The notes under the pieces were generated by a model. The model was not told where the DNA came from. It did no database searches and saw only the letters and a program-made list of their open reading frames with translations. DNA of 64,000 nucleotides from Podarcis liolepis. Lineage: Eukaryota. The position numbers and the translations under genes were made by a program. Shown one piece after another: positions 37,074 through 46,884 of this stretch. Position 1 is the first letter of the stretch; the number at the start of each line of letters is the position of its first letter. The DNA lies in the NCBI GenBank assembly GCA_965112155.1, contig OZ218107.1; one strand, written 5' to 3'.

Positions 37074-40062
37074 TACATTGTGTGTCTACCAAACCAATCA
37101 ACTGCCCATTGACATCTATGTCTGATGTTCCTCTACACAAGGGCTTGGTTAACTGTCCTGTTCTCCTAATACCCTCAACAAACTGCAGTTCCCAGGACTC
37201 TTTGGAGAGGCCATGACTATTAAGAAGTTGTGTAGGAGTGATTTCAACTTACAGCGTGACTATGACCCCAATTCCTCAAAATAGTGAGCAAGCTTTCAAG
37301 ATAGCCAGAGCTCTTTATCAGGCTGGAAGTTAAGCAAAGGTGTGTGTGGGGTGTGTGGCCAGCTTGGTGTTAAAACCACAACGTCTGCTTTGATCTGCAT
37401 TAAGAGGAGCATCCTTAATAGGCTAGGCTTTCCTAGGTGCTACATGGTAGGTTTTAAAAAATATATATGGAGGTAGCAGAGTTCGAGGAGGCTTTGTGGA
37501 GTGTGCTGCACTTGATCTGACAGGCAAAGTTTCTGAAGGTTCCAAGCAACCAGACAGCTGAGAAGCAGAATTGTGTTTCAATGTCAGCCAAAGGACAAGG
37601 GGGAGAGAGAGTGTGTGCACATCCACAAGAAATCTCCCCCCTCTGAGACTTTTGCAGGCCTGCTCCTCTCGTTCAAGAACAGTTGGCGTTGTCTCTTGTG
37701 GGCCACAGCAGGGAGACAGGTTGGTCTCAAATAACTGTGCCGCGAAAGGCATGTGTCGTCCTCATTCTTTGCTCATGCTGAGGTTTCCGCTTAATCTGCC
37801 TTTATTCACAGTAAGAGCTATCCAGTGTGTGCAACCTGTCCTAGCCGCTCCTGGAGGTGAACCCTCACTTACACCAGCTGAGGAGATTAATACATATTTT
37901 GGGCGGGTGAGACTTAGTTACTAAGACACCATCTCTGTAGACGCAGCACACGGGAAATGGCTTTACCCTAAAGGACTGTAAGTGCTACTAGAAAAGTGCC
38001 CACATCTAAACCAGTGAAGCATGTGGGATTTTGGAGATATATAGCCTATGCACTTAAAGTAGTAAATAATAATAATAAAAGCAGCTTTTTCAGACTACCT
38101 TTAAAGTAAAATGGAAGCATTGTTTTTGCGCTATGTGCAAGGGCATGTCCCAATATGAGACACCAGCCTGTGGAATGGGTTCAAGTAGGCCACAACGTTA
38201 TTGGCGACAAGTGTGTGGGGTTGGCATGGCAACCTGCCCGCTGTTTGAAACCACAACCAGCTCTCCTGGCGGACACACTCCTTGAGAGTTGCCTACACAG
38301 CAGCCCCCATTGTGGTGCAGACCAAGCATTTGGGAACCAGCTAGCAGCCTGAGGTGAGCGACGTTTGGCCGGGCTGCCCTAAGTGAGGACTGTGGCCTGT
38401 TGTTGTGGCACTTCTTCAGTCGATGATCCTGCCCAAAGGCGTTTTCCACCACCGTTGTGACAGGAAATGTAACCCCTCACAATAACATGTTTCCATTTAC
38501 TAAAGGAAAGTCGAAAACCTCTTGATTTTACTCCCAGCCAGTTGTAGCTGGACATAAAAATCCGTTCTGGCCTTGACAATCCATGATGAATGACATCCAA
38601 GGTAAAGGTCTGAAACCGAGGGTGGGTGAAGAAATCCCCACAGAGAAAGGCTATGGTTGATGGGTGCCAGCTCTTTTAAAAACAATGCCAGCTTGCCACT
38701 TGTGGGCAATTGAATCTGGGACCTTCTGCATGCGAAGCAGATGTTCTGGCACCAAGCTGCAGTCCTACCCCATAATTTTCCAGGCCACTTTACTTGCTTG
38801 CTTATTGTGTTTATAGCCCACCTTTTCCCCCAAGAAGCTCAAGGGGGCACACGCGGTTCTTCCCATCCTCACAACAACCCTCTGAGGTAGGTTAGGCTGA
38901 GAGGCCCAAGGCCTCCCAAGGAGCTTCATGGCCAAGTGTGGATTTGAACTTCTGTCTCTCAGGTCCTAGTCTGACACTCTAACCACCACGCAGAACTGGT
39001 TCTCATAGGTAAGCATAGGAACCACCTTATACTGAGCCAGGCCACTGACCTACCTAGCCTTGCAGTGCACTGTCCACTCCAGCTGGCCGTGCTTCCCTGG
39101 TCTCAGGCATAAATCCTTCCCAGCTTTGCTTCCTGAGATCAGTTTAACTAGAAATGCCAGGATTGGCACCTCCTGCATGCGAAGCATTCGCTTTACCGCT
39201 GAGCTTCTCATTGATGACACTCTGAGGGGTTAAGCACATGCTTAACTCTCTGACTGAGCTCGGTTGATTGTAGAAGTGCTTAATTTTGGCTCAGTTGCAC
39301 CTGTTGTCTTTGTAAGAGCATGCTTGGTTATCACAGGCTATAGCATATCCAGAAATGTATAAATATAAATTAAAAAGGAATCTGAATCTGCATTAACGCT
39401 GAAGCGCCCCGATGATTCCCCCTGCTCACCACCCAGCAAGGTTATTTGCAACAGTATCTGGGACATGAATCTTTGCGTGCTTTTGCACACACCCATTCCA
39501 TCCCAGGTCATGCTGAAACCTGACACACTGAATACTGGGCTCTCACAGAGTGCCAGTGTCCTGTTTTTAATGGTCATGGCTGACCCAGGTCAGGTTTAGG
39601 TCAGCCAGGAGGAGGCAATGCACAGCAGCCTCCTGGAGCTTGCATCTTGACGATCTACTGTTCTTTTTAGCAGGGAACTTAAGAAGTGAATTCTGGGTGC
39701 TTCCAGATGACCTGTTTATTGATCTTCCACCCTGATTGGTTTGCAGGGTGATTAGGTGGCTGTTGGCTATTTAATGAGCATTTATTCTGATTTGTTTGTG
39801 TGGAGGTTAGATGATGTTGCATCAAAGCAAGAGTTATCCTAAGAGTTTTGCACGAGCAGGCATCTGCTTCTCATTTCTTTTTGTCCCACAAGCACCCTTC
39901 AGAACTGCTCCAGCAGGTTGGAGAACCCTTTTGATCAGATTTGGGGGTCATGGTAGAGACTTGGAGGGGTGGAATGGGCAGACCCTGGTCTTATTTCACA
40001 AGTAGGGAGGCATCATTGGATACCGCCTACTCTTGACACTAAAGACTTGCCTAATGAAGATA

Positions 40063-43200: not shown

Positions 43201-44256
43201 CTTTTGCAAAAAGGGGGCTGTTTGGCATTCCTTCTTCTCCTATTGCCTTTTGGCTCAAGTTCTAGTGGTGACCTCAGTCAGTGCTGAACAAATTCTGTAT
43301 CTCTAGCCTTCAGGAAACAGTGTGATTGTACAATCATAAAGTGCCTGGACTCCTGCACCCAGTAGATGGGGTGCCTTTTTTGTTCCCTGTGTGTGAATTG
43401 CCTGGGTGTCTTTCTGCGTTTTATTTGGAATCCCACAGCAACTTGCTTGGAATTAATGGCTTTTTAATAAAGTGCCTCCACAGCTAGTCTCTGCCAGCAG
43501 ACACTCTCAAAGAGGGTTATTTATCATTCACATGATCCCTGTCTTTCTGTCTCGTGCTCTCCTGTTGCCCTTTTGTTTCTTTCCTCAGTGCCTAAAGACC
43601 TCAAAGCGGGCAATGACACTGGTAACTAGGGATGTAAGAAGGCATTGATTCCCTTCCTGCCCCATATTTGTCATATGCTGCCCTGTTTCTGTTCCTCTGC
43701 AGTTTGGCTTCCAACAAAAAAAACCTTTATTCGTCTCACTGTCTGCTATGGTGAAATTTTGCACAATTAATTACGTTATCATTACATTGTTCCACATCAT
43801 TGGTTTCATTGCAAAGGAAACACAATACAAATGGAATGGGAAGGTGAGTAATCAATTTCGTATTGTCATGTATCATCTGCAAATTGTAAACAACAGCAGT
43901 GATGTATTAACTGGATTTATTTCTGTTCTGAACATGGGATGAGCAAGTGAGCATGAGCAGTTTCCACTCCCAGTAACCTAGGGGGATATGAGCAACCTAT
44001 GATAGATATTTGTTTACGATAGCTGCTTCCAGAAGGATAGTCATGTTAGTCAGTTGTAGCAAAAGCAGCAGTCTTGTGGGGCTTAAAGGCTAACAGACAG
44101 AGGGTCAAACAAAACCAGGGACCCCACACACAATGTCCATGGGTGCCTGGGTGCCCACCAGTATCTCCTGTGCCATAGGGCCTTTGCTGCCCATGCAAGG
44201 TCTCTGCAAATATTCCTTCAAAAACCCATAATGGATGCCACCTGTAATAATAATAG

Positions 44257-45511
44257 GGCTTGCTCGTGCGTAAGTTGCCGCCACTCCTGGCTAGGTTGCC
44301 TGGTTAAACCTTTCTGTCTGGACAGCCCTTCACTTTGTGGCTGTTTCAGTCGCTAGCAGAATCCGTCAGTGGGCGTTTCTTAAACCTTTTCCAGCATAAA
44401 AGCTGTTTGACGCCAAGTCTCTTCCTACTCTCCCTGCGCGGAAGTCTTCTGCGCAGGGAGGGTGTGGGTAGCGGAGGACCCGTGCTCTCCCCGCTGGTGT
44501 CCGGCGAGGAGTCCTGGAGCCCTCTCGCCAATTCCCCCATCTGCCCCCCTTTATCCCTGGTGTTGCGCTGATTTCCTTCCCCAGCTGATGAGCTGCCTCT
44601 CTCCCTGCTGGGTCCTTCTCCAGCATCACTTGGGAGCCTTCCCTCCGCCTCTGGCTCCGATGTCAGTTCCCTGACATCCACCTCCCCCCCAGGACCCCCT
44701 CCACCCCGGCCCGACCTTTTGATCCAACTTCGTCCCTTTCTTCGGCTGACGATGCGGGGAACCCCCGGAAGGAGCTGTCGCCATCTCTGAGGATTCAAAA
44801 CCCGCTTCCCACCCGCTCTGATCCCTTCCCGCGGGGTGGGCCTCCCAGTCTGATTATTCTTCCTCCGAATCCTCTCCTCCCTCCTCTTCGGAGGCAGAAA
44901 AACCCACAAAATCCTCTTCATCGTCTGTGGTTCCAAATTGCTCCTCCCAGAATCTCGCTAGTGGTTTGGGTTTGTCCGGGAACAGGTGGTGGAATTCCTC
45001 CACAAGATACCCGTCATTGATTGCCTCCGCGGGAACCCACCTGTTTTCTGACCCGGCTTTTCCCTCCCAAGCTACGAAGTACTCCACCTGGCGTCCTCGC
45101 CACCTTGAATCGAGTATTTTCGTGGCTGGGTTGTGGTGTTCCCTCTCTTCTATCTGCGGGTGTGTGGTGACTTCTCCCTCTCGCCCCGGGAATTCCCGCC
45201 CCTCCCTGTACGGTGAGAGTAGGGACCTATGGAACACCGGGTGTATTTTCATGCTGTCAGGCAACGTGAGCTTGAATGCCACGGGGTTCACCTGCTGTGT
45301 TACCTCAAACGGTCCCAGCCGCCTTGGTTGCAACTTCTTGCACCCCCCCTTAAAGGGTAACCCTTGGGTTGACAACCACACCCGGTCTCCCACCCGTATG
45401 GTCTCCCCTTCCGTACGGTGCTTGTCTGCCTGCCTCTTGTAAATTTCCTTGGCCCGTTCCAAGTTCATCTTAAGTTGCTGGTGCAGGGCCTCCATTTCTT
45501 CCACAAACTGC
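44257..45511 (-). mobile_element. Ty3/Gypsy chromovirus fragment: integrase C-terminus, chromodomain, acidic tail, PPT and partial 3' LTR
   Basis: ORF 44854-45504 has the GPY/F module (KKLQPRRLGPFEV...KIHPVFHRSLL) and a chromodomain (ILDSRW..EYFVAWEG...RWVP). Polypurine tract GGGGGGGAGGTGGA at 44677-44690 is immediately followed by TGTCAGGG (LTR start 44676). GC/CpG-rich relative to flanks. Confidence 0.9.
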
Positions 45512-45579
45512 TAGTAATTAAAAGGGGATTATACATACTTAAAAAGATAGAAACAAGGACAAATGGTTAAAAGCGACTA

Positions 45580-45810
45580 CAGTGGTACCTCGGGTTAAGA
45601 ACTTAATTTGTTCTGGAGGTCCGTTCTTAACCTGAAACTGTTCTTAACCTGAGGTACCACTTTAGCTAATGGGGCCTCCTGCTGCCACCGTGCGATTTCT
45701 GTTCTCATCCTGAAGCAAAGTTCTTAACCCGAGGTACTATTTCTGGGTTAGCGGAGTCTGTAACTTGAAGCATCTGTAACCTGCAGCATCTGTAACCCGA
45801 GGTACCACTG
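45580..45810. mobile_element. Tigger-like MITE
   Basis: CAGTGGTACCTCGGGTTA / TAACCCGAGGTACCACTG TIRs with TA TSD. Confidence 0.92.
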
Positions 45811-46652
45811 TATAAGGGAGGGAGGGTGAAGGAGCACAGGTCTTGCATTTTGCGCCTAGTCTCTGGCGCAAGCCATCCTTTAATAAATATCCGGCATGGC
45901 AGTTTGCTGTTTATTATATTTGCTCTGAGCAACAAAACAGTCCATAAGATAGTAAGAAACTGCAAAGGCAATTAGCCGTCATGCGGGTGACCTCTTTTCC
46001 AGCTAGGTAATAATTAACCAGCAGTGACTATTTGAATGTGGTTGCAGTAAACCCAGTGAGGTTCTCTGGGCTGTACCCAAAATATTTGTTTATCTTTAGT
46101 GGTAGTATGATCTTGCTCTGGCTCCCTTTCAACAACATTTACTATCCTGTTGGGCAGTTGGCCCATTCATTCCTGGCAGATGCTGCCAGACTAGAGGTTA
46201 CTCAGAGCTCCCCCCTATGGCCACCATGAGAACAGGAGGTAATAACTATTAAAAATAGATGGTAGAATTTGAAGATCTGAATCTTTAATGATGGACACCA
46301 ACTTGCTGTTTTTTTAAAGGATTAGACAAATTGATGGAGGAGAAGGTTAGCAATGTCTACAGGATGTGATGGCTATGCTGTACCTCCCCTGTTGGAGGCA
46401 GAATGCCTCTGAACACCAGCTGCTGGGGATCACAAGTGGAAGAGAATGGGATTGTGCCCTGCCTGTGGACTTCCTGGTGCTCTTCTACCTGAATCCTGCT
46501 CCCTTGTTTCCCATGGGTATCTGGTTGGCTGCACTTAGAACAGGCTGCTGGACTAGAGGGGCCTTTGGCCTGATCCAGTAGAGCTCTTTTTATGTTCTTA
46601 AGCTAATCTCTTTCTCTGATGTGCCATGACCTTTTTCTTTCTCCTCCTCTAG

Positions 46653-46884
46653 CCATCCATTCCTGGCTCCAGGTTGGAAAACATCATCAACATCAATCAT
46701 TATGCCACCAAGAAAAGCGTGGCTGAGAGCATGCTGGATGTGGCGCTCTTCATGGCCAACGCTGCGCAACTGAAGGCAGTGCTGGAACAGGGGACGTCCT
46801 TCCAATATTATGCTGTCCTGACTGCTCTCATCACCATTTCTCTCTTCTTCCAAACTGCCATTGGGATTCTCCTGATCATTATAG
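46653..46884 (+). CDS. NINJ2: Ninjurin-2 exon 2 (PSIPGSRLENIININHYATKKSVAESMLDVALFMANAAQLKAVLEQG...IGILLIII)
   Basis: Polypyrimidine tract plus TAG acceptor at 46650-46652 and G|GTAAGC donor at 46885. Contains the ninjurin signature NHYATKKSVAESMLDVAL and the first TM helix. Confidence 0.97.

Follow-up and report, generated by a model that had tools for sequence, protein, structure and literature searches.

A putative host-type LEDGF-binding motif in the integrase tail of a lacertid chromovirus lineage

A decayed chromovirus copy in Podarcis liolepis

The subject of this study is the 3' end of a long terminal repeat (LTR) retrotransposon of a lacertid lineage, which lies at positions 45512-44243 on the minus strand of a 64,000-nucleotide stretch of the Podarcis liolepis genome (contig OZ218107.1; the whole stretch is called the window below) and whose integrase ends in a tail resembling the short motifs by which host proteins bind LEDGF/p75. 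Full-length sister copies measure about 5.5 kb and display paired LTRs with TG...CA ends, 5-bp target duplications and a polypurine tract, while their pol frame (1058 amino acids in copy L042) carries Pfam domains in the order reverse transcriptase, ribonuclease H and integrase with a C-terminal chromodomain. The LTRs with their target duplications and the order of the pol domains both identify the element as a Ty3/Gypsy chromovirus; its closest named element protein is a Podarcis muralis record with 94% identity. Where handles are needed, L numbers denote loci or copies in the genome G000, P numbers proteins and C numbers contigs of G000.

The window copy is truncated on its 5' side near 45512, the position at which the alignment of most sister copies ends, and of its LTR pair only the 3' LTR remains (44243..44676; 434 bp, TG...CA, as judged from the paired LTRs and 5-bp target duplications of sister copies). 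In the direction of translation, the remaining sequence on the minus strand encodes the SH3-like (Tf2-1) domain of the integrase C-terminus (45205..45390; Pfam PF24626, E 1.4e-20), a chromodomain (44989..45120; Pfam PF00385, E 2.1e-8) and two units similar to the TFIIS N-terminal domain-interacting motif (TIM). Unit 1 (44899..44961) reads LARFWEEQF, GTTDDEED and FVGF; unit 2 (44759..44811) consists of W-x-x-x-F, a 9-residue acidic/Ser linker and FRGF, with a frame break at about 44787. A stop codon peculiar to this decayed copy lies between them (44854..44856), and the polypurine tract follows at 44677..44690.

Outside the element, the window contains a Ninjurin exon on the plus strand (46653-46884; Pfam PF04923, E 1.8e-25) that is bounded by an acceptor and a donor site. 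The retroelement lies antisense to this exon and about 1.1 kb upstream of it, probably in an intron of the Ninjurin gene, whose upstream exon was not located. Just past the 5' break of the retroelement, at 45578-45813, sits a short element with inverted ends (TACAGTGGTACCTC...) that has a related copy at 40061 and that we presume to be similar to miniature inverted-repeat transposable elements.

Two motif units share one reading frame and are under purifying selection

The initial annotation had read this tail as two helix-acidic-FxGF units that had been separated by mutation. Its sequence observation is confirmed: on the minus strand, FVGF occupies 44910-44899 in the frame of the chromodomain and FRGF, at 44770-44759, is read in a different frame, exactly as annotated, and both the stop codon and the frame break are decay of the window copy because sister copies hold the two units in one open frame. 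Among 28 sister copies that span the region, 19 have both units in a single stop-free frame from the end of the chromodomain. We then considered a wider set composed of 30 fetched copies of the 40 best DNA hits, 60 loci from protein searches and an additional copy in L041; the motif region is spanned by 81 of these 91 loci, and 70 are left after removal of copies at least 99% identical. Of the 70 distinct copies, 50 hold both FxGF units in a single stop-free frame, the second unit thus being in frame in intact copies as the annotation had proposed, while the remainder have unit 1 only (n=13), unit 2 only (n=4) or neither (n=3). The x of FxGF is V (33 copies), E (27), K (2) or G (1) in unit 1 and R (50) or Q (4) in unit 2.

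According to PMC9987994, a TIM comprises a helix, an acidic linker of 8-16 residues and an optional FxGF, which all known TIM partners of LEDGF and HRP2 possess and which has a unique role for these two proteins; PMC8022399 gives [E/D]xExFxGF as the consensus of LEDGF motifs. Unit 1 matches this consensus exactly and unit 2 misses its acidic positions, so that the annotated resemblance to LEDGF motifs holds for the first unit and fails at these positions for the second. The linkers of all element units measure 8-9 residues, within the published range, and, apart from the Ser/Thr-rich linker of family C, conform to an acidic Ser/Thr/Gly composition in which CK2-type S/T-x-x-D/E sites are visible.

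A tail of this kind might reflect chance in an acidic, low-complexity sequence or constraint on DNA or RNA beside the polypurine tract, and we regard this explanation as very improbable. It is favored by the relatedness of the copies by descent and by the occurrence of bare FxGF in 1.6-3.9% of shuffled tails, but a full motif arises in just 8-31 of 100,000 shuffles and two motifs arise in none. For the 206-residue tail of the natural copy L039, one full motif was found in 31 and two motifs in 0 of 100,000 shuffles, using a pattern that was defined after the motif had been seen. Retention of the motif across families at 43-64% identity (see below) likewise argues against chance.

Variants present in at least three copies ("shared" variants) were classed codon by codon as synonymous or non-synonymous, and 11 key codons were defined as the helix aromatics and the F, G and F of both units named by the TIM model. 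These codons carry 9 shared silent and no shared amino-acid variants, compared with 71 silent and 114 amino-acid variants in the other 79 tail codons, only 20 of which carry no amino-acid variant (hypergeometric P 2e-6; 1.2e-3 for the FxGF codons alone; Fisher 2.6e-4; all P values are approximate because the copies are related by descent). That the key codons do change silently argues that the constraint acts on the protein and not on the DNA. The FxGF residues therefore do not vary freely: F, G, F and the helix residues are constrained and the x position is variable. We conclude that purifying selection acts on the motif, which is part of the pol frame, and that the contrast between synonymous and non-synonymous changes largely refutes chance or DNA/RNA-level constraint.

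Beyond the motif, the pol frame of sister copies L032, L039 and L042 runs across the polypurine tract and about 110 codons into the 3' LTR (44346-44690 of the window, minus strand), where it ends in an Arg/Lys patch followed by L-L-C-W. This LTR-encoded basic patch and the stop correspond to 44346..44453, and similar basic C-terminal ends are found in families B and C and in P0005. With 13 silent and 5 amino-acid shared changes over codons 336-345, the patch is under purifying selection as well; it may possibly serve as a nuclear localisation or nucleosome-binding signal.

The units resemble host LEDGF-binding motifs of the same genome

We searched the whole genome with the pattern F-x4-[DE]-x-E-x-F-x-G-F and used the reversed pattern as a control, which gave 392 and 45 matches, respectively. 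Most of the 100 matches listed resemble the retroelement clade, and 1 of 13 inspected is a host exon. This exon encodes IAKIF-YEDSDDES-FCGF and is followed, 7.6 kb downstream on that strand, by a zf-4CXXC_R1 exon; a host paralogue on C13 has two motifs, LADIF-NTPSDDED-FLGF and LREIF-REDTESENEA-FEGF. The two paralogues are presumably CDCA7 and CDCA7L. The element units share both pattern and linker length with these CDCA7-family motifs (host linkers 8-10 residues), a close match that bears out the annotated likeness to a host motif. Compared by eye with the CDCA7-family exon, the motif DNA is short and of low complexity. The genome also contains PSIP1, with an exon 100% identical to a Podarcis muralis record, and a second gene with an integrase-binding domain (IBD), which we take to be HDGFL2.

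More generally, the tail has in common with the host TIMs of LEDGF/HRP2 partners (CDCA7/CDCA7L(JPO2), IWS1, KMT2A, POGZ and fly JIL-1) a putative helix with a Phe, an 8-16-residue acidic Ser/Thr linker and FxGF, and CDCA7-family proteins resemble the element tails in having one or two motif copies each. A preprint describes one or two LEDGF-binding motifs of the form [E/D]XEXFXGF in vertebrate CDCA7 proteins. Host TIMs reside on cellular proteins, whereas the lizard motif, known from sequence, is part of the integrase of a mobile element. Pogo-type transposases may also have acidic-FxGF ends. POGZ is transposase-derived and binds LEDGF (PDB 6EMP), yet it is a host gene, unlike the lizard integrase.

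The motif could instead be a short linear motif for a different partner, either the TFIIS N-terminal domain of IWS1, TFIIS, Elongin A or MED26 or an unrelated acidic-aromatic reader. The combination of helix and acidic linker is the general TIM signature, the element helix has W where three host motifs have L or I, and further Trp residues of the tail are fairly conserved (W195). Against this alternative, which we consider unlikely, the best-conserved part of the motif is FxGF itself, to which PMC9987994 assigns its role with LEDGF/HRP2, and the spacing agrees with that of host LEDGF motifs.

The motif is confined to a lacertid clade in the proteins sampled

Together, three protein searches and a profile search against 1.84 billion representatives returned 320 hits, of which 228 have a locatable SH3-like domain and chromodomain. 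Because these searches cover annotated proteins only, squamates other than lacertids are thinly sampled. In 16 of the 228 proteins, the chromodomain is followed by an acidic FxGF unit: 13 are named Podarcis proteins, 2 are unnamed records from their clade and 1 is a chimera matched by chance. Among the annotated protein hits, relatives from Anolis (4), Rhineura (1) and Vipera (1) have their own tails without an FxGF unit, and none was found in the fish, frog and fungal-type relatives or in a Podarcis outgroup family. The suggested conservation across squamate chromoviruses is thus not supported, as six non-lacertid relatives lack the unit, and the motif has been seen in the lacertid lineage only. 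Two additional Anolis proteins terminate at the chromodomain, and three models from squamates are chimeras; these are therefore uninformative on absence of the motif. The tails of four cage-intact Anolis chromoviruses (P0345, P0346, P0348 and P0351) contain DEEENLGF, which lacks the first Phe and the helix Phe and may be chance or a half-motif.

Within the clade, families at 43-64% identity keep at least one unit, and divergent families retain one even where the flanking tail fails to align. Families B (LQEIF-EETDSEEEE-FIGF) and D (LKDIF-AQTDEEEED-FFGF) each have a single unit that conforms to [E/D]xEx, family C has a single unit that misses the acidic consensus positions (FDDWLF-TPTLSAST-FQGF), and P0004 reads FFEQVF-GPTDDEED-FKGF. 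The tandem arrangement described initially is accordingly real in the sub-branch of the window element but is not a general trait, given the single units of B, C and D and the loss or weakening of unit 1 in some tandem-type families. In a 21-row tree, the motif-bearing families together with the motif-less L117 form a clade with support of 100/98. A separate locus, L141 (G000:C11:418600-420800), contains two partial units of chromodomain plus motif separated by 434 bp, and identical motif DNA recurs elsewhere on C11; it is a tandem, amplified derivative of the P0004-type family.

The adjoining chromodomain has lost its methyl-lysine cage

One feature missed by the initial annotation is the loss of the methyl-lysine cage from the chromodomain that adjoins the motif. 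Of the three cage aromatics (Y24, W45 and Y48 of HP1), the family of the window element retains the middle Trp and has non-aromatic residues at positions 1 and 3, as seen in the cage census and in column counts. The census covered 219 anchored proteins of 322, and all three aromatics are present in 0 of 16 motif-bearing compared with 187 of 203 motif-less proteins; several of the 16 cage-less, motif-less exceptions are mis-registrations of the regular expression or clade members with truncated sequence. In the closest family that lacks the motif (3 copies, 2 of them readable), the cage consists of Y, W and F and the acidic tail contains no FxGF. In family C (L103-L112, P0009 and P0010), even the central Trp is lost and the Chromo domain is no longer scored in precomputed Pfam lists, and the FxGF unit is retained beside this chromodomain. 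Loss of the cage and gain of the motif were probably a single evolutionary event.

Group I chromodomains such as that of MAGGY read histone H3 di- or trimethylated at lysine 9 (H3K9me2/3) and are defined by the three cage aromatics, and PMC3350952 (2012) places the cage-less group II in plants only and group I in vertebrates. The lizard elements share the integrase end of SH3-like domain plus chromodomain with both groups. They differ from group I (MAGGY and the fish and frog elements) by cage loss and resemble the plant group II in cage loss at positions 1 and 3. Compared with known chromoviruses, they are thus a vertebrate clade with cage loss plus an added TIM-like tail.

Genomic spread of the insertions

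Contig C20 (40 Mb, 2.5% of the assembly) holds 23 of the 40 top hits for the family of the window element and 39 of the 64 top hits for family C. We rejected targeting as the cause of this enrichment because the youngest family is missing from C20 (0 of 24 family-B copies) and some C20 copies are segmental duplicates with shared flanks. The pattern agrees better with retention than with targeting, and it does not discriminate between the binding models. C20 is probably a sex-limited or otherwise non-recombining chromosome. Family B (L091-L102 and L149-L155) comprises 24 near-identical copies on 14 contigs, 20 of them with an open frame of 1310-1311 codons. Five of 7 fetched copies have 100% identical LTRs of 421-422 bp and 5-bp target duplications, with target sequences that are all different. 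Given identical LTRs within copies and the dispersal of near-identical copies, the expansion of family B is very recent.

One alternative accepts binding to LEDGF or HDGFL2 without any role in site choice, the motif serving to stabilise the integrase, to retain it on chromatin or to compete with TIM proteins of the host, for example the CDCA7 family. It draws on the same motif evidence as a tethering function, and the older copies are spread unlike gene-body insertions. Moreover, JASPer, a LEDGF-domain protein of flies, stabilises JIL-1, its partner with an FxGF motif, and FxGF proteins of the host compete with one another for a single site. We still judge this alternative improbable, as the motif occupies the integrase C-terminus, where murine leukaemia virus (MLV) and Ty1 carry targeting peptides, and occurs where the chromodomain cage has been lost.

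A possible tether to transcribed chromatin

The interpretation that we favor, and whose chances we see as evenly balanced, is that the integrase tail would act as a TIM mimic that binds the IBD of LEDGF/p75 or HDGFL2 and tethers integration to H3K36-methylated transcribed chromatin. The disordered tail would fold onto the IBD, its helix and its FxGF each filling one of two pockets, and the CK2-type sites of the linker may tune affinity. The PWWP domain of LEDGF/HRP2 reads H3K36me3 and would deliver the integration complex to gene bodies carrying H3K36 methylation, the link being a motif of the host type in a position similar to that of the MLV BET-binding tail. This tether would have replaced the chromodomain once, in the ancestor of the clade, and a later duplication would have produced the two units of the window's subfamily. 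On the broader scenario we are more tentative, rating it a little short of even: that the lineage may have switched targeting by losing the H3K9me-reading cage and gaining a host LEDGF/HDGFL2-binding motif, possibly captured from a CDCA7-family exon. In sequence, the units show the pattern of a short hydrophobic helix ending in Phe, and AlphaFold2 predicts folded SH3-like and chromodomain modules followed by a disordered tail, with a low-confidence helix at 161-164 for unit 1 (predicted local distance difference test, pLDDT, under 50). A predicted complex of the PSIP1 IBD (P0072, residues 288-385) with unit 1 (36 amino acids) scored 0.29 in both runs relative to a mark of 0.34, in a setting without alignments or controls and not validated for peptides, a result that speaks neither for nor against binding.

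Several observations weigh against a tethering function. Regarding structure, AlphaFold2 predicts no helix for unit 2; PDB sequence searches with the tail gave either nothing at E<=10 or four unrelated weak hits without a TIM match, and a search of the ESM Atlas with the family-B motif gave unnamed clusters (best 0.84), again without a TIM match. The motif itself is imperfect in places: G-D-S-S precedes FRGF in unit 2 of the window subfamily, the helix of unit 2 frequently contains Gly, and the linker of family C is Ser/Thr-rich instead of acidic. P0005 has lost unit 1, and P0337-P0339 have the first F of unit 1 replaced (M/L-E-G-F); all of these retain unit 2, and therefore no family of the clade is without a complete unit. 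Monophyly of the motif-bearing set alone, with support of 73/48 in the 21-row tree, is neither shown nor rejected. If cage loss and motif gain were one event, as is probable, they amount to one observation and not to a statistical association. Finally, the pile-up of older copies on C20 is not a gene-body pattern. Overall, the interpretation in the initial annotation is partly supported.

Relation to known systems and implications

Integration via a host tether is known from other elements. Lentiviral integrases with LEDGF/p75 and HRP-2 resemble our model in the predicted host factor and the predicted integration into gene bodies, but they bind LEDGF through a folded catalytic-core dimer and the N-terminal domain, whereas the lizard tail has a linear motif of the host type. 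The MLV integrase tail with the BET ET domain and Ty1 IN1 with AC40/AC19 of Pol III resemble our model in that the disordered integrase tail contains a conserved peptide of about 16-20 residues by which it docks on a chromatin or transcription protein of the host; these integrases differ from the lizard element in partner and motif and lack a chromodomain. For viral mimicry, the available text of PMC9987994 names lentiviral integrases alone. In the literature searched, we found no description of a retrotransposon integrase with an FxGF/TIM motif, although motif scans in the supplements of subscription papers could list cases. The general strategy is known; what appears to be new is the combination of partner and motif, together with its exchange for the chromodomain cage.

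How vertebrate LTR retrotransposons choose their sites is largely unknown, and tethering by LEDGF has been described as specific to lentiviruses. If our model is true, the lizard elements would be the first case in which a mobile integrase reaches LEDGF by truly mimicking the motif, in convergence with lentiviruses, and would represent a second, independent route to this reader as well as a natural switch from a heterochromatin reader to a reader of active chromatin. A selected host-type TIM on an integrase would also compete with the host partners of LEDGF.
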